From: Patescibacteria group bacterium
GTDB lineage: Bacteria; Patescibacteriota; Patescibacteriia; UBA9570
Length of the DNA stretch: 64,000 nt
Assembly: GCA_041665365.1 (NCBI GenBank)
Contig: JBAYIY010000003.1
Span: forward strand, 4,260 to 68,259
Reading direction: 5' to 3'
Shown here piece after piece: positions 7,762 through 19,257 of the stretch (its first letter is position 1; each line of letters begins with the position of its first letter). Made by a program: the position numbers and the translations under genes. Below the pieces are notes generated by a model. It saw only the letters and a program-made list of their open reading frames with translations. It ran no database searches and was not told where the DNA came from.

Positions 7762-9513
7762 ATGTCTCACCAATACATTGCCGTTATCGATTTTGGTTCA
7801 CAATTTGCTCATCTGATTGCGCGCCGGATTCGGCAGCATGGCGTGCTAGCGAAAATATTTACACCCGATACAAATCCTACTGAATACGCTGATGCCAAAG
7901 GTATAATTTTATCCGGTGGGCCCAAGAGTACTATTGCGGAAGATGCTGTGCCATATAATCATCGTTTGTTCGATATTAAGGTACCGATTTTAGGTTTATG
8001 TTACGGACATCAATTAATTGCCCTGCATTTTGGTGGTCAAGTGGCCAAAGGTAAAACCAAAGAGTACGGTCAGGCTGATCTAACAATCACTCAGCCCGAT
8101 GTTATTTTTACCAGTCTATCTAAAAAACAAAGAGTTTGGATGAGCCATTGGGATGTAGTTACCCAAGTTCCGGCTGGTTTTACAGTGATTGGTCGAACAG
8201 CAGATTGCGACATGGCCGCCATGGTTAACCCCACCAAAAAAATCTGGAGTTTTCAATACCATCTGGAAGTGCATCACACCACACATGGTTTAAAAATGTT
8301 GGAGAATTTCTTGTTTAAAATTTGTCAGGTGCGCGCCGATTGGAATATAGCGAAGATTGAACAAGAGATTATTAAAGATATTAAAAAAACTATACCAAAC
8401 CATAAACAAGTCTTTGTGTTGTTATCCGGCGGAGTCGATTCGACTGTAACTTTTGCTTTGTTAGAAAAAGCCTTGGGCAAGAAACGGGTTTATGGTTTAC
8501 ATATCGATAATGGTTTTATGCGCTTAAATGAAAGTAAGCAAGTTCTTTTCGCTTTGAAAAAAGCCGGTTTCGGTAATATGCATATGGTGGATGCCTCAGA
8601 GCGGTTTTTGCAATCTGTGGCTGGTATGACTGATCCAGAAAAAAAACGTCAGGCCATTGGTGAAATGTTTATTGAGATTGCCAATGAAGAAATAAAAAAA
8701 ATGTTGTTGTTGGATAATTATATATTGGGTCAAGGTACAATTTATCCAGATACGATCGAATCTGGTGGTACCAAACACGCTGATAAAATTAAAACTCATC
8801 ATAATCAAATAGATTTGATTAAACAAATGATTAAAGATGGGAAAGTAATTGAACCATTACGCAATCTTTATAAAGATGAAGTGCGCGCGATCGGTAAAAG
8901 ACTGGGCATAGCCACGAGTTTATTACAACGTCAACCTTTTCCCGGGCCTGGTTTAGCGATTCGCACATTATGTTCCGATGGTCAGAATCCGGTAGTCGCT
9001 GCCGGGATTTTGCCAATGAAATCAGTGGGCGTACAGGGTGATGAACGATCCTACAAACATCCCGCCATTATTACTAAACCAAAAACTTGGTCGCAACTCA
9101 ATGAATTATCTGTGCGTTTAACCAATGAAGTGTTTCATATTAATCGTGTGCTTTGGCTGGTAGCAGGTAAAAATATCTCACAAGCCAAAATGCATCCCGC
9201 TTATCTAACTAAAGCTAGATTGGATTTATTAAGACAAGCCGATGACATTGTACAACGAGTCATGCGGCAAGATAAACTCACCAAAGATATTTGGCAATTT
9301 CCCGTAGTACTGGTGCCGTTTGGCAGAAATCAGACCGGTGAAACCATAGTTTTACGACCAATTCAATCACAAGAAGCTATGACGGTAAATTTTTACCCCA
9401 TGCCCAGAGCGAGTTTAAAGAAGATAACCAAACAGTTATTAAAACTTCCAAAGGTTGAGTATGTTTGTTATGATGTCACCAATAAACCACCTGCTACCAT
9501 TGAGTGGGAATAA
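7762..9513 (+). CDS. guaA: GMP synthase (glutamine-hydrolysing)
   Basis: Class I GATase N-terminus (IAVIDFGSQFAHLIARRIR..LGLCYGHQ) and ATP-PPase P-loop (LLSGGVDSTV). The start was moved to ATG 7762 (MSHQYIAV), which abuts the purH stop. Confidence 0.9.
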   Translation: MSHQYIAVIDFGSQFAHLIARRIRQHGVLAKIFTPDTNPTEYADAKGIILSGGPKSTIAEDAVPYNHRLFDIKVPILGLCYGHQLIALHFGGQVAKGKTKEYGQADLTITQPDVIFTSLSKKQRVWMSHWDVVTQVPAGFTVIGRTADCDMAAMVNPTKKIWSFQYHLEVHHTTHGLKMLENFLFKICQVRADWNIAKIEQEIIKDIKKTIPNHKQVFVLLSGGVDSTVTFALLEKALGKKRVYGLHIDNGFMRLNESKQVLFALKKAGFGNMHMVDASERFLQSVAGMTDPEKKRQAIGEMFIEIANEEIKKMLLLDNYILGQGTIYPDTIESGGTKHADKIKTHHNQIDLIKQMIKDGKVIEPLRNLYKDEVRAIGKRLGIATSLLQRQPFPGPGLAIRTLCSDGQNPVVAAGILPMKSVGVQGDERSYKHPAIITKPKTWSQLNELSVRLTNEVFHINRVLWLVAGKNISQAKMHPAYLTKARLDLLRQADDIVQRVMRQDKLTKDIWQFPVVLVPFGRNQTGETIVLRPIQSQEAMTVNFYPMPRASLKKITKQLLKLPKVEYVCYDVTNKPPATIEWE

Positions 9514-9530
9514 TTATTAACAAGGGAACT

Positions 9531-10430
9531 ATGTATAAATATATTGCCAGTATCTTGTTCGCAGCCACAGTGGCTGTGCCAGCTTTAGCTAATACACAAC
9601 CGGCCGCAGTGCAGAATGTGGCTGTTGAAAAAAAATTTGCCCATCGGGTAAAACTCGATTGGTCAGATAGTCAGTTAGATACTGTGACCGGTTATCAAGT
9701 GCGCGTCATGAAACAGGCCAATAATCAGTTAGTGAAAAAAGTCCGGACACCAGAATCACAAGTTGTGGTTACAGAGTTACAACCAAACACGGCCTACAAA
9801 ATGCGTATTCGTACTATTGCCAGTGGTGAACTCGGTGATTATTCCGAACCAGTTGAAGTCACAACTAAACCGGTGGCATCTATTACTGTCACAGTTGATG
9901 GGTCTAATGTCAGTTGGGTAGTAGACGGTGATGCGGTGAATGGTTTCAAAGTAGTCTGGTCAAAAAATGAGCATCCAACTTATCCAACCAGAACGGGGGA
10001 TCAATATCAATATGTTAGTGCTGATACTAGTTTGGCTACTTTAACCAGTTTTGATGGTGCCGGTACTTATTATGTGCGGGTGTGTAATTATACTGGTAGT
10101 GGCTGTGGTGTTTATTCCAATGAAGTTACGGTTACTCTAGAGGCAACCAATGAAGTTGAAAGTATAGTTTTGAGTTATGTTGAGGGCAAGAAAGTATCTT
10201 GGGTAGCCGATGGTTATTCTGAGAATGGTTATAAATTAGTCTGGTCAAAGAATCCCCATCCAGAATATCCCACCCGCGATGGTGATTCATACACCTATTA
10301 TGGTGCCGATGCGACCTATGGTTATCTTAATGTCACTGAAGCCGGTACTTATTACGCTCGGGTTTGCACTTATGTAAATGGTGCCTGTGGCGTTTATTCC
10401 AATGAATTAACCTTGGATTTGGTAGAATAA
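9531..10430 (+). CDS. secreted protein: FN3 domain followed by two tandem ~95-aa repeats
   Basis: Signal peptide; FN3-like segment (..YQVRVMK..YKMRIRT); repeats VSWVVDG..VVWSKNEHPTYPTR..GTYYVRVCNYTGSGCGVYSNE and VSWVADG..LVWSKNPHPEYPTR..GTYYARVCTYVNGACGVYSNE. Confidence 0.55.
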   Translation: MYKYIASILFAATVAVPALANTQPAAVQNVAVEKKFAHRVKLDWSDSQLDTVTGYQVRVMKQANNQLVKKVRTPESQVVVTELQPNTAYKMRIRTIASGELGDYSEPVEVTTKPVASITVTVDGSNVSWVVDGDAVNGFKVVWSKNEHPTYPTRTGDQYQYVSADTSLATLTSFDGAGTYYVRVCNYTGSGCGVYSNEVTVTLEATNEVESIVLSYVEGKKVSWVADGYSENGYKLVWSKNPHPEYPTRDGDSYTYYGADATYGYLNVTEAGTYYARVCTYVNGACGVYSNELTLDLVE

Positions 10431-10455
10431 AAAATAGGAAACAAATATAAATAAA

Positions 10456-10503
10456 CAAAACTAACGTAGGGGTAATTCATGAATTACCCCTACGTTAGTT
10501 TTG
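10456..10503. repeat. 48-bp perfect palindrome CAAAACTAACGTAGGGGTAATTCA|TGAATTACCCCTACGTTAGTTTTG; intergenic copy of the IHELPL palindrome family
   Basis: Read directly from the sequence; its 30-bp core is identical to the in-CDS copy at 54484-54525. Confidence 0.7.
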
Positions 10504-10522
10504 TGTCTCTACTGGTTTTGAT

Positions 10523-10597
10523 ATATATTTGTTCTTGACCGATTAGAAAATTCATGATATCGTCATCTTGAAAGCGCTGAAAAGGGCGCTTTTTGTG
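10523..10597 (+). repeat. ~70-bp direct repeat, copy 1 (promoter-like TTGACC plus hairpin AGCGCTGAAAAGGGCGCT-T5); flanks the higBA-like module
   Basis: Near-identical (about 5 mismatches) to 11202-11275. Confidence 0.6.
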
Positions 10598-10602
10598 TTG
10601 TT

Positions 10603-10905
10603 ATGGAATTACATACCAAACCAATTGTTGAGGATTTTATTCAAAACCTAGAAACGTCTACAATGGCTAAAGTTTCTAGAACAATTGATTTATTAGAAAA
10701 ATTTCAATACTCATTAGGAATGCCGCATAGCAAAAGAATTGGCCGTAATATTTTTGAGTTACGAATTAGAGGTAAACAGGAAGTCAGATTAGTTTATACA
10801 TTTAAAGATGATTTTATCATTTTGTTTTATGGATTTATTAAGAAATCTAATCAAATTAATCAACGAAACCTAAACAATATCTACCATTTATTTGACAGTT
10901 TATAA
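10603..10905 (+). CDS. type II toxin, RelE/ParE superfamily (HigB/Gp49-like)
   Basis: 100 aa; motif ..GRNIFELRIRGKQEVRLVYTF.DDFIILFYGFIKKS is typical of HigB/Gp49 toxins; an HTH antitoxin follows. Confidence 0.6.
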   Translation: MELHTKPIVEDFIQNLETSTMAKVSRTIDLLEKFQYSLGMPHSKRIGRNIFELRIRGKQEVRLVYTFKDDFIILFYGFIKKSNQINQRNLNNIYHLFDSL

Positions 10906-10929
10906 CGTATAAGTTATAATCATTCTTAT

Positions 10930-11199
10930 ATGGAATATAAGAAATTTAAAGAAAGAGTATTACGTGATCCTGAGGTAAGAAAAGCCTACGATGCACTGGG
11001 ACCAGAGTTTGCTTTAATTGAATCTTTAATCTCTAAACGTATAGCCAAACAACTCACTCAAACAGCTTTGGCTAAAAAAATTAACACTAAACAATCTGCC
11101 ATCGCTCGGTTGGAGTCTGGGAAGTATAATCCCAGTTTAGCTTTTCTGAATAAAGTAGCCGTAGCATTAGATACCAGAGTAAAAATAACTATTGAGTAA
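10930..11199 (+). CDS. XRE-family HTH antitoxin (HigA-like)
   Basis: 89 aa; HTH motif LTQTALAKKINTKQSAIARLESGK; immediately downstream of the toxin. Confidence 0.65.
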   Translation: MEYKKFKERVLRDPEVRKAYDALGPEFALIESLISKRIAKQLTQTALAKKINTKQSAIARLESGKYNPSLAFLNKVAVALDTRVKITIE

Positions 11200-11201
11200 C
11201 T

Positions 11202-11275
11202 ATATTTCTTGACCGATCATAAAATTTATGATATCGTCATCTTGAAAGCGCTGAAAAGGGCGCTTTTTGCGTAGA
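11202..11275 (+). repeat. ~70-bp direct repeat, copy 2 (upstream of ftsK)
   Basis: Matches 10523-10597. Confidence 0.6.
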
Positions 11276-11308
11276 CGGCACCTTGAAAATATGATATAGT
11301 CCGAACCT

Positions 11309-13486
11309 ATGGCGAAGAAATCGAAAAGTGGAAAAGCTCGAGCTAGTGAGCCAATGATGGATCAAACCACCCGTCGTGGCGTGTTAAGTATCATTATTCT
11401 GGCCTTAGCTCTCATTACGATCTTGAGTTTATTCGGATTAGCCGGAACCATCGGTGTTTATTTCAATACCGGATTAACCACCGTAGTGGGATTAGGTCGA
11501 TATATAGTACCGATTTTGCTACTCATTGTTGTTTATCATTTATTGGCACCAAAAGACGCCGAATTGGAATTATCTCCATTATTTATCACAGGCATGGTAA
11601 TAATGGCGGTGGGTATCTTTGGCCTAATTGATATTGTTCAACCGCAAGCTGGTGGTTATGTGGGTACGGCTTTAACCTACCTGTTCAGAACTATGGCTAG
11701 TGTGGGGGTGGCGGTGGTAATATTCGTAGCCTTCATTCTCATTTCTATCCTGATTGTCTTTAATGCTTCATTGTTGAATATTATTCAGCACATTCCAGCA
11801 CGTACCATGTTAGGTAAGACACTGCGGTTTGTGGTTGCCTTTTTTGGTAGTGCTCGACAAAGATTAGCCATTGCTAAAGAAGAAGCCATGACTGAGGTCG
11901 AAGCAGTGGAGGAAATTCATGAATTGCCAACTGATGAACCTGAACCAGATTACACAGAAAATAGTGTCGATGCATTGGATGAAGAGATCATTGATACAGA
12001 AGAAGGTAAACAAATGAAACTAGTGCGCATACCAAAACATCATCGCAAGATCGATTTACCTTTAGATTTATTATCTAGTAATAAAGGTAAGCCGACCAGT
12101 GGTGATATTGAACACAATAAAGAGATAATTGTGCGCACACTGCAAAACTTTGGGATTGATGTTGAATTAGGCCCGGTCAGTGTTGGGCCAACTGTGACAC
12201 AATATAGTTTTCGTCCAGCCTCAGGTGTAAAAGTATCCCAAGTTGTTTCATTGCAAAATGATTTAGCTTTGGCCTTAGCGGCTCATCCAATTAGGATCGA
12301 AGCACCAATTCCTGGGAAATCATTAATTGGCGTGGAAGTACCAAATATTAAGGCAGCTCAAGTGGGGTTGCGAGAACTACTTGAATCAGATGAGTTTAGA
12401 CAACGTAAAACCAATCTAACTTTAGTGTTTGGTAAAGATGTCTCTGGTAAAGCCTTTGTTGGTGATCTAGCTGCCATGCCGCATATGTTAATTGCTGGTG
12501 CCACCGGTTCTGGAAAATCGGTTTGTATGAACACAGTGCTGATCAGTTTGCTTTATCAGAACGGACCCGATGATTTGAAGATCGTGTTAGTTGATCCAAA
12601 ACGAGTTGAGTTTAGTATGTACAATGACATTCCGCATTTACTGACACCAGTTATTACGGATGTGCAAAAAACCATCAATGCCTTACAGTGGACGGTAAAC
12701 GAAATGGATCGTAGATACGAAGTCCTCGCTCAAGCTAAAAAGCGTGATATTGCTGGCTATAATACAGCTCATCCTGAGCAAACTTTACCTTATATAGTGT
12801 TTGTGATTGATGAATTAGCTGATCTGATGGCCACAGCACCACGTGAGGTTGAAGCCGCGATTGTTCGTTTAGCTCAAATGGCTCGGGCAGTAGGTATTCA
12901 TTTGGTATTGGCTACGCAACGTCCGTCGGTTGATGTTATCACTGGGTTAATCAAAGCCAATATCACAACGCGCTGTGCCTTTTCAACCGCATCGGTGGTT
13001 GATTCACGCACCATTCTTGATATGTCTGGTGCCGAAAAACTATTAGGACGAGGGGACATGCTTTATATGAGTACCGACTCATCTAAGCCGCGTCGTTTAC
13101 AAGGTGCCTTTGTATCGGAAGAAGAGATTAGTCACGTGGTCACTTACTTAAAAGACAATGGTAAGCCGGATTACGATACTGAGGTGGTGGAACGGGGCAA
13201 GACCGGTGCCTTACCACAAGCCTTTATGGATAGCGAGGCCGATGATGAATTATTACCCGCTGCCAAAAAGGTGATTGTCGATTCACAGAAAGCCTCAGCA
13301 TCTTTACTGCAAAGACGTCTGCGGGTAGGGTATGCCCGAGCGGCGCGCTTACTGGATATTTTGGAAGAGCAAGGTTTTATTGGCCCGGCTGATGGTGCTA
13401 AACCACGTGAAATCATGTCCGTGTCTACTGACACAGATATTCCCACACCTGAAGCAGTTGACGAAGATGACACTACCAACGTTTAA
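11309..13486 (+). CDS. ftsK: DNA translocase FtsK/SpoIIIE
   Basis: N-terminal TM helices, an acidic linker, Walker A (GATGSGKSVCMN) and a gamma domain. Confidence 0.9.
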   Translation: MAKKSKSGKARASEPMMDQTTRRGVLSIIILALALITILSLFGLAGTIGVYFNTGLTTVVGLGRYIVPILLLIVVYHLLAPKDAELELSPLFITGMVIMAVGIFGLIDIVQPQAGGYVGTALTYLFRTMASVGVAVVIFVAFILISILIVFNASLLNIIQHIPARTMLGKTLRFVVAFFGSARQRLAIAKEEAMTEVEAVEEIHELPTDEPEPDYTENSVDALDEEIIDTEEGKQMKLVRIPKHHRKIDLPLDLLSSNKGKPTSGDIEHNKEIIVRTLQNFGIDVELGPVSVGPTVTQYSFRPASGVKVSQVVSLQNDLALALAAHPIRIEAPIPGKSLIGVEVPNIKAAQVGLRELLESDEFRQRKTNLTLVFGKDVSGKAFVGDLAAMPHMLIAGATGSGKSVCMNTVLISLLYQNGPDDLKIVLVDPKRVEFSMYNDIPHLLTPVITDVQKTINALQWTVNEMDRRYEVLAQAKKRDIAGYNTAHPEQTLPYIVFVIDELADLMATAPREVEAAIVRLAQMARAVGIHLVLATQRPSVDVITGLIKANITTRCAFSTASVVDSRTILDMSGAEKLLGRGDMLYMSTDSSKPRRLQGAFVSEEEISHVVTYLKDNGKPDYDTEVVERGKTGALPQAFMDSEADDELLPAAKKVIVDSQKASASLLQRRLRVGYARAARLLDILEEQGFIGPADGAKPREIMSVSTDTDIPTPEAVDEDDTTNV

Positions 13487-14141
13487 TCAGCGAGCGGTTA
13501 CCAATAGTGAAACGCTTGGTCAAAAATTGCGTCGTGTGCGTGAACAAAGTCGTTTCACTATTGCCGATATTAGCCAGCGTTTACAGATTAAAGCCGAATA
13601 CTTAACTGCGATTGAAGAGAGTCGGTATACAGATTTACCCAGTGCCGTATTTGTAAAAAATTATGTTCAGCGCTACGTAAAAATATTAGGAGTGAGTTTT
13701 ACTACAGTAGAACCATTGCTATTATCTGAACTAAAAGTTTACGAACGTCAACCAACCATTCCAACCTTAAAACGGTATTTGACCCAACGGCCATTACGTA
13801 TCTGGACAGTTGTCTTTGGGCTGTTAATGCTCTTCGTTGTGCTCGCCATTGGCACATATTTCGCACTGGAAATTAGCCATAGTATTGAGCCACCGGTAGT
13901 AACTTTAGAGACAATGCCGCCTAAAGTTGCCTACGTCGATCGAGTAATAACTGTGGCTGGACAAACCGTTCCGGAAGCGGTAGTGTCTATAAACGAACAA
14001 GTGATTCCAGTATTACCAGATGGTCGTTTTAGCCAACTAATGTCTCTCCAAGAAGGTAATAATATATTAAAAATTGAAGTTAAAACAAAACGCAGTCAGT
14101 CAAACATTCAGTACGTTCAAGTTTACGTTGATAAAAAATAA
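13467..14141 (+). CDS. membrane protein with N-terminal XRE-type HTH (RodZ-like architecture)
   Basis: HTH (LGQKLRRVREQSRFTIADISQRLQI), a single TM helix and a C-terminal extracytoplasmic domain. The start was chosen at ATG 13467; the upstream part of the ORF overlaps ftsK. Confidence 0.45.
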   Translation: MTLPTFNQRAVTNSETLGQKLRRVREQSRFTIADISQRLQIKAEYLTAIEESRYTDLPSAVFVKNYVQRYVKILGVSFTTVEPLLLSELKVYERQPTIPTLKRYLTQRPLRIWTVVFGLLMLFVVLAIGTYFALEISHSIEPPVVTLETMPPKVAYVDRVITVAGQTVPEAVVSINEQVIPVLPDGRFSQLMSLQEGNNILKIEVKTKRSQSNIQYVQVYVDKK

Positions 14142-18978: not shown

Positions 18979-19257
18979 TCAGGACGAGCTTTTTTTACTC
19001 AATTCCTTAAGTAGGACAATATTTTGTTGAATTAAGGCCATTTTTTTAGCACGTGACCAGCCTTTTATTTGTATTTCTCGTTTATGAGCCATGTCTCTAG
19101 AAGGATATTGTTCTTGATATACCATTCGTATGATGGTGAATTTTTTCGTAAAAAAAGAATCATGGTTTTTGTGTTCAAGAAGACGTTTTTTTATGTTATT
19201 CGTAATACCAGTATAAAATACAGTGTTATCGCATAACAAAATATATAATGTATACAT
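18979..19257 (-). CDS. GIY-YIG nuclease family protein (standalone, UPF0213-like)
   Basis: ..YILLCDNTVFYTGITNNIKKRLLEH.. and ..IQIKGWSRAKK.. motifs; 92 aa. Confidence 0.7.
   Translation of the reverse strand: MYTLYILLCDNTVFYTGITNNIKKRLLEHKNHDSFFTKKFTIIRMVYQEQYPSRDMAHKREIQIKGWSRAKKMALIQQNIVLLKELSKKSSS

Follow-up and report, generated by a model that had tools for sequence, protein, structure and literature searches.

How did a toxin-antitoxin (TA) pair come to lie between two nearly identical copies of a promoter-like segment directly ahead of ftsK, and do these copies record its arrival or offer it a way out? The question is raised by positions 10523–11275 of a 64-kb stretch of contig JBAYIY010000003.1 (the whole stretch is referred to here as the window), the host of which is placed by its FtsK protein in the uncultured Candidatus Kerfeldbacteria (candidate phyla radiation, CPR/Patescibacteria). 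The repeated element, a promoter-like sequence followed by a hairpin, was given the name P1hp for this report, and the second promoter-like site between it and ftsK is called P2. Comparison with related genomes makes it probable that the TA pair was inserted between P1hp and P2, with duplication of P1hp, in the ancestor of an inner clade of eight lineages (FtsK 71–92% identical among themselves), and that this was followed by losses of the pair and by gene conversion in the present genome.

The repeated element and the genes between its copies

Two near-identical segments of 70–75 bp (10523–10597 and 11202–11275) had been described in an earlier, sequence-only reading of the locus. A repeat search recovered roughly the same pair as a direct repeat of 67 nt at 10532–10598 and 11206–11272, with 63 of 67 positions identical (94%) and 674 nt from start to start. 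If a 3-nt indel is allowed, visual inspection extends the similarity by about 8 nt in the 5' direction (TATATTT), giving a total of about 75 nt. Each half of the repeat occurs exactly twice in the window at three or fewer mismatches, with an expectation of zero from shuffled sequences. A covariance model of P1hp, trained on 10 copies and run unfiltered on the window, also returned these two copies only, with scores of 72.8 bits (copy 1) and 70.9 bits (copy 2); the third-best match (19.7 bits, 19106–19177) lies inside a minus-strand open reading frame (ORF) and was dismissed. A contig of the Joint Genome Institute (JGI) from a different metagenome (L003) is 100% identical across 890 nt covering both repeats, and the duplication is therefore not an assembly artefact.

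Copy 1 (10523–10601, plus strand) consists of a −35 box TTGACC (10535–10540), a TG-extended −10 box TATCGT (10558–10563) and a hairpin GAAAGCGC-loop-GCGCTTTT (10570–10593) followed by five T residues. Copy 2 (11200–11275, plus strand) has TTGACC at 11209–11214, TATCGT at 11232–11237, the hairpin at 11244–11267 and again T5. The TTGACC box that had been pointed out in both copies was scored in each by a consensus promoter scan as TTGACC-17-TATCGT with TG upstream. This part of the element, P1, is treated here as a sigma-70-type promoter candidate that may be weak, and a transcript from it would start at the foot of the hairpin. The hairpin has a stem of 8–9 bp with four GC pairs, a 6-nt loop, T5 and a value of about −12 kcal/mol, and its GC-rich stem-loop with a T-run directly after it corresponds to a predicted intrinsic terminator. 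The hairpin with T5 that had been reported is present in the sequence, GAAAGCGC/GCGCTTTT and T-run included, but the consensus terminator scan lists it as terminator-like in copy 1 only, and with a z-score of only −1.8 against shuffles it is unremarkable by itself. No relevant Rfam match was obtained, either in a permissive scan of 10300–11500 or in a gathering-threshold scan of five related loci.

The repeats flank exactly the two-gene unit, as had been claimed: 4 nt separate the end of copy 1 from the toxin ATG (10603), and copy 2 begins within a few nucleotides of the antitoxin stop codon (11197–11199). Copy 2 then leads directly into P2 (11272–11300, plus strand; TAGACG-17-TATAGT with TG upstream) and the ftsK ATG at 11309, which bears out the proposal that the second copy forms the ftsK upstream region. 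The order along the locus is fn3 gene, palindrome, copy 1, toxin, antitoxin, copy 2, second promoter-like site and ftsK.

The first gene between the repeats (10603–10905, plus strand, 100 aa) encodes a Gp49/HigB-like protein of the RelE/ParE superfamily, which matches the Pfam family Gp49/PF05973 with 55.4 bits (6e-15, cutoff 23.9); an identical protein is named RelE/ParE family toxin at NCBI. Its match to the solved HigB chain 6AF3_A is weak (E 0.12), and its score against NCBIfam TIGR02683 falls under that family's cutoff. The second gene (10930–11199, plus strand, 89 aa) encodes a HigA-like protein of the XRE/Cro-type helix-turn-helix (HTH) class, which matches Pfam HTH_3 with 45.8 bits (6e-12, cutoff 23) and the HigA chain 6AF3_B with an E-value of 0.003, so that presumed toxin and antitoxin find the two chains of one HigB-HigA complex. 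The genes are co-oriented and 24 nt apart, and the toxin-first order is kept in five homologous loci. By every sequence criterion available the pair is a HigBA-type type II module, in agreement with the HigBA-like, toxin-first identity first suggested for it; as a module it is ordinary, and its setting is unusually tidy. The GC content is 27% in the toxin gene and 36% in the antitoxin gene against 40–44% in neighbouring genes, and the GC content at third codon positions is 22 and 27%, respectively, against 33–37%.

A further promoter-like sequence, TTGACA-17-TATAAT (10892–10920, plus strand), lies in the 3' end of the toxin gene within its last codons and agrees with the consensus at 12 of 12 positions. 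Its spacer contains a near-palindrome of 9+9 nt, TATAACGTA/TAAGTTATA (10901–10918), which is likely a candidate operator for the antitoxin, and the antitoxin ATG follows 9 nt past the −10 box. The internal promoter, the palindrome and a spacing of 6–9 nt to the ATG are kept in all six TA loci compared, two of which lie outside the ftsK context. A comparable palindrome was not seen in P1. We infer that the internal promoter is strong and controlled by the antitoxin and, because the ATG stands 9 nt after the −10 box, that it would yield a leaderless antitoxin mRNA.

It should also be noted that both the ftsK and the antitoxin ATGs lie only 6–11 nt past good −10 boxes and are without a Shine-Dalgarno sequence (window 11272–11311 and 10915–10932; ftsK starts of L004–L027), which suggests that leaderless or near-leaderless mRNAs are frequent in this Kerfeldbacteria clade.

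Occupied and empty ftsK sites in related genomes

A comparison of the region upstream of ftsK within the inner clade separated its lineages into two arrangements. The TA pair stands between two P1hp copies in the window, L004 (= L011), L015 (= L014) and L023, and L005, L006, L007 (= L021) and L018 have no TA genes and exactly one P1hp before P2 and ftsK. Three more distant relatives without TA genes, L024 and L025 (FtsK identity 66–68%) and L027 (55%), keep the synteny of guaA ... ftsK-rodZ-like-recA and carry one P1hp-like element with another stem sequence (GCGCC/GGCGC in L024, AGGGC/GCCCT in L027), which still has a hairpin at the usual spacing from a TTGAC or TTGAA. In a relative with 45% FtsK identity no P1hp was found and only a simple promoter precedes the gene. 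The single copy without TA that the sequence-only reading had expected in relatives was thus seen in seven of them, and neither outcome that it had named as contrary was encountered: none of the relatives examined has two repeats without genes between them, and no widespread repeat family appeared in the related loci or the window. The insertion at ftsK that it had proposed is real, but it is not private to the window genome.

Because TA-free relatives down to 55% FtsK identity carry a P1hp-like element, P1hp is, on this comparative evidence, a native part of the ftsK control region that is older than the TA pair, and its retention at TA-free ftsK genes, with a TTGAC that is invariant within the inner clade, implies selection independent of the TA genes. 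Copy 2 is orthologous to the single P1hp of the TA-free relatives. In the layout common to the inner clade, TTGAC is followed by 18 nt, a TAnnnn sequence (often with TG one base 5'), 7–8 nt, a hairpin AAGAGCGCC-loop-GGCGC and T5–6. TTGAC is invariant in 13 of 13 inner-clade copies, with the TAnnnn hexamer 17 nt past the −35 hexamer. Among 13 copies drawn from nine lineages, L023 copy 1 alone departs, with 36 nt, from a distance of 33–34 nt between TTGAC and the hairpin. The hairpin with its T-run is retained in all 16 copies examined, with loops of 5 to about 10 nt. Compensatory stem variants were noticed by eye in L004 copy 1 (GTGT/ACAC) and L027 (GGGC/GCCC), and in L023 copy 1 the stem is extended to 14 bp, also by eye; these few variants together with the T-run provide structural support for the hairpin.

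P2 is likewise conserved. Of the eight inner-clade lineages, six keep the block GCACCTTGAAAAT.TG.TATAGT, and L015 and L023 depart from it at one or two bases. A metagenome scan with the conserved P2 block GCACCTTGAAAATRTGNTATAGT returned a single contig, L011, of the same species as L004; it bore out the L004 sequence and brought in no further lineage. The ftsK ATG lies 8 nt past the −10 box of P2 in the window and 8–11 nt past it throughout the relatives, a spacing from which a near-leaderless ftsK mRNA is expected. For native ftsK, P1hp might allow attenuated read-through and so a leadered mRNA, might insulate P2 or might produce a tiny RNA.

The junctions of the TA unit are also shared. At every TA locus with P1hp the toxin gene starts 0–12 nt after the T-run, and the downstream TTGAC contains the antitoxin stop codon (TGA) in L004, L015 and L023. 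The window alone uses a TAA stop codon, 9 nt upstream of TTGAC.

Two related TA pairs were found away from ftsK. The closest toxin homologue outside the strain (L012/L013, 59% identity) lies upstream of rpsO-pnp; it is preceded by a P1hp with the inner-clade stem AAGAGCGCC/GGCGCTTTTT (59 bits), and its antitoxin stop codon again lies inside a TTGAC. That TTGAC belongs to a different promoter (TTGACC-17-TACAAT), which is followed by the rpsO leader and has no second hairpin, and the locus therefore indicates that P1hp and the TA genes can be relocated together, the break falling at the −35 box. Genes for rpsO or pnp, looked for as a comparison with this context, are absent from the window. The second pair, L016/L017, is a close homologue (63% identity) without any P1hp, from which it follows that P1hp is not intrinsic to this TA family.

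The records of L004 and L006 are titled 'uncultured Gammaproteobacteria bacterium', with FtsK 76–77% identical to that of the window and 79–92% identical to that of named Kerfeldbacteria metagenome-assembled genomes; the titles are probably a taxonomic mislabel or a binning error.

A probable single insertion and its alternatives

In the reading that we consider probable, ftsK natively had a two-part control region with a distal P1hp and a proximal P2. In the ancestor of the inner clade a HigBA-type pair would have been placed between the two and P1hp duplicated, so that copy 1 came to front the toxin gene and copy 2 came to lie directly after the antitoxin gene, ahead of P2 and ftsK. Toxin expression would be kept low by a weak P1, by the terminator-like 5' hairpin acting as an attenuator and by a start codon without a Shine-Dalgarno sequence, and antitoxin would be made in excess from the strong consensus promoter inside the toxin gene, probably under autoregulation. 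The hairpin of copy 2 is expected to end TA transcription and to shield ftsK from the strong internal promoter, and ftsK would retain its complete native P1hp-P2 control region. A crossover between the direct repeats would delete the TA genes and leave one P1hp, as in the TA-free relatives, and gene conversion would homogenise the copies, as suspected for the 94% identity in the window.

As for the earlier proposal that a promoter/terminator segment of ftsK had been duplicated by the insertion, insertion and duplication both hold, but the segment is made up of the conserved distal promoter-like sequence of ftsK and the 5' hairpin that goes with it. The upstream gene does not have its terminator here but has a palindrome of its own at 10448–10511. 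The alternative that had been offered alongside, repeat-mediated excision, fits the single-copy empty sites but was not directly observed.

Several observations favour a single founding event, namely the shared junction, the agreement of the TA and FtsK trees, and losses that are cheap in mechanism because a crossover between direct repeats leaves exactly the single copy seen. The FtsK tree has the form ((L023,L015),(window,((L018,L006),(L005,(L007,L004))))), and the TA tree likewise joins L023 and L015 as sisters. TA identity also scales with FtsK identity, being 64% at 86% FtsK identity and 55–59% at 71–76%.

The age of the repeats is a separate matter from the age of the insertion. In the promoter part, copies 1 and 2 are 82% identical in the window, 59% in L004, 41% in L015 and 31% in L023, against a between-genome background of 35 ± 7%. 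Orthologous P1hp copies are already near this background at 84% FtsK identity (54% or less), and the near-identity of the window repeats must therefore be recent. Because at least three other lineages share the layout with more diverged repeats, the 94% would reflect recent conversion (or re-integration) and not the age of the insertion. Gene conversion may also have reshaped the 3' end of the window antitoxin gene, since only there is the stop codon a TAA 9 nt before TTGAC.

A number of results weigh against this account. Parsimony on the FtsK tree slightly favours three gains (three events) over one gain and three losses (four events), a difference by which parsimony alone does not decide. 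In L004 the two copies are closer to each other (59%) than to the single copy of the sister lineage L007 (46% and 38%); the difference is not significant over about 39 positions, and duplication after the split explains it as readily as conversion. P1 may be weak or not a promoter at all, as its −10 boxes match the consensus poorly and differ from copy to copy (TAAAGG, TAACCT, CAAAGG and others). In the mostly sequence-conserved stem a covariation analysis found one double change, which is not above shuffles. Finally, an exact-protein look-up with FtsK, toxin and the fn3 protein found no empty-site or circular form of this strain; it returned the source contig, the identical L003 and two Logan contigs ending at 10484.

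The main alternative is recurrent, site-directed acquisition, in which the TA genes with one P1hp would excise as a circle and re-enter empty ftsK sites by homologous recombination at P1hp, for example after DNA uptake, with several gains as the result. It requires one event fewer than a gain with three losses, and it would account for window repeats that are 94% identical in an element that evolves fast. The relocation of P1hp and TA to rpsO, with its right-hand break at TTGAC, the position of recA three genes away and the foreign-looking composition of the TA genes also speak for it. On the other side, the four ftsK-linked sets of TA proteins are only 55–64% identical and their divergence tracks the host, with no recent donor visible; the shared junction, with the stop codon inside TTGAC, indicates one founding event, though spread by homologous recombination would preserve a junction as well. 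The look-up described above revealed no circular or empty form, and 67 nt is short for efficient RecA-dependent integration. Recurrent acquisition is therefore considered possible but unlikely.

A further step would be to regard the duplicated pair as a functional device, either a reversible cassette moved in and out by RecA, or a coupling of the TA genes to ftsK through a shared P1 signal and a read-through gate at copy 2. If either were true, a reduced CPR genome would have its addiction module linked to how the chromosome segregates and the cell divides, and populations that switch between carrying and lacking the TA genes would display a polymorphism that is regulated or selected. We regard this as improbable.

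Still less probability is given to the view that P1hp belongs to the TA pair and not to ftsK, and that the single P1hp of TA-free genomes is a scar of TA loss. It would account for L012/L013, where a P1hp with the inner-clade stem stands ahead of the toxin gene at a locus that has no relation to ftsK. Against it, TA-free relatives with FtsK identity as low as 55% still have a P1hp-like element ahead of ftsK, TTGAC does not vary among the inner-clade genomes that lack the TA genes, the close homologue L016/L017 has no P1hp, and the second copy is left unexplained.

Membership of the repeats in a dispersed family (REP/BIME-like elements, miniature inverted-repeat transposable elements (MITEs), integron attC sites or IS200/IS605-type ends), or their origin as an assembly artefact, is scarcely credible: the constant spacing between a conserved pentamer and a hairpin superficially recalls the ends of single-stranded DNA transposons or attC, yet only two copies exist in 64 kb even by the unfiltered covariance model, the element occurs only upstream of ftsK or a toxin gene across 14 related loci, a complete copy remains at each empty site, which is not the case after transposon excision or at unoccupied integration sites, the loop length varies from 5 to about 10 nt, integrase or transposase genes are not found nearby, Rfam gave no match and two independent assemblies agree.

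The individual identities were rejected on similar grounds. An integron cassette would carry attC, an imperfect palindrome with R''/L''-L'/R' boxes and a GTTRRRY core, and the repeat found here has one short hairpin, two copies and no integrase among the called neighbours. Transposon, MITE and IS200-IS605 readings were set aside because the flanking repeats are direct, about 67–75 nt long and host regulatory, and the empty sites of seven relatives keep one complete copy. A REP/BIME-like family does not agree with two copies in the window, which covers 64 of the 180 kb of the contig, or with an element that related loci carry only at ftsK or at a toxin gene. Xer/dif-like, attC and IS200/IS605 hairpin readings were likewise rejected, since the loop varies in length, the repeats are direct, each empty site retains a full copy and no recombinase was found nearby.

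Surroundings of the locus and comparison with known systems

The single insertion with duplication of P1hp thus remains the preferred account, and the genes around it are guaA, fn3, ftsK, a rodZ-like gene, recA and groEL. The ftsK gene (11309–13486, plus strand) encodes a DNA translocase of 725 aa and is followed by the RodZ-like HTH_25 gene (13467–14141), which overlaps its 3' end, and by recA. No recombinase, transposase or integrase was found among the called neighbours of the locus. Relatives with as little as 55% FtsK identity still have the cluster ftsK-rodZ-like-recA-MamF/MmsF-like-groEL.

On the other side of the locus, directly 3' of the fn3 gene stop codon (10430), lies the palindrome at 10448–10511 (no strand assigned), with arms of 32 nt that are 91% complementary and have no spacer. 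It resembles a bidirectional terminator that would serve the upstream gene and appears to mark the left edge of the ftsK control region. The two Logan contigs of the same strain, L028 and L029, both stop at its centre (window 10484), which indicates that the palindrome breaks short-read assemblies.

The fn3 gene itself (9504–10430) contains an internal direct repeat of 71 nt (10059–10129 and 10341–10411, 77% identical), corresponding to two tandem copies of a C-terminal domain, each ending ...GTYY.RVC.Y..G.CGVYSNE. The slot between guaA and the ftsK control region, which this gene occupies in the window, is hypervariable when compared with L005, L007, L015, L018, L023, L024, L025 and L027. Relatives hold there ORFs of 508, 381 and 393 aa, TIG- and BNR-domain proteins, a divergent sigma-factor gene, a 62-aa ORF or, in L025, 270 nt of GC-rich nested palindromes (L025 1735–1885), and the slot looks like a local hotspot of gene turnover. 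In L004 (1–200) and L011 (minus-strand display 1240–1050), a GC-rich stretch with a composition unlike its surroundings lies just 5' of P1hp copy 1; its opposite strand carries an ORF of about 64 aa with four CxxC pairs that is zinc-ribbon-like by eye, and it has no Rfam match.

Literature searches gave nothing relevant on TA systems in the CPR or on TA modules flanked by promoter duplications, and no account of the present arrangement was encountered. Current understanding of TA systems is unchanged by it, and its value is that of a well-defined example and a pointer to promoter architecture in the CPR. The pair was captured among the control sequences of ftsK, a gene essential for division, in a CPR lineage that has been studied little, and the related genomes form a natural series for a chromosomal TA system in which sites are occupied or empty, one copy has been relocated and repeats appear homogenised. 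The series illustrates how duplication of a host promoter-hairpin may leave newcomer and essential gene each with full signals and yet make the TA pair easy to lose. It also draws attention to a conserved and uncharacterised promoter-into-hairpin element upstream of ftsK in Kerfeldbacteria and to an apparently heavy use of leaderless mRNAs.

With HigB-HigA, as represented by HigBA of Streptococcus pneumoniae (PDB 6AF3), the pair shares the toxin-first order, a RelE/ParE toxin of about 100 aa, an XRE HTH antitoxin of about 90 aa and a palindromic operator-like sequence in a promoter. It differs in that its similarity to the solved HigB is marginal (E 0.12), that the palindrome stands in an internal promoter serving only the antitoxin and not ahead of the toxin gene, and that the toxin leader is a terminator-like hairpin. 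The Gp49/PF05973 branch of Pfam also includes HigB2 of Vibrio cholerae. In higBA of Rts1 (Proteus vulgaris) a second, weaker higA promoter lies within higB; a separate antitoxin promoter inside the toxin gene of a toxin-first operon is therefore common to both, but the internal promoter of the present pair has a perfect consensus, is presumably the stronger one, would give a leaderless mRNA and holds the only recognisable candidate operator.

The setting invites two further comparisons. In the chromosomal (super)integrons of Vibrio, TA gene cassettes are flanked by near-identical attC/VCR repeats, and there as here a two-gene TA unit is tightly bracketed by direct, palindrome-containing repeats of about 70–120 nt that could mediate its loss. 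The present locus has no attC architecture, integrase or array, and its repeat is a duplicated host promoter-hairpin in two copies. In Escherichia coli, ftsK is served by tandem promoters, the SOS-controlled dinH promoter and a second one. Two tandem promoter-like sites likewise precede ftsK in the window, but here there is no evidence of a LexA box, the distal promoter would fire into a hairpin and T-run, and the proximal one would give a near-leaderless mRNA.

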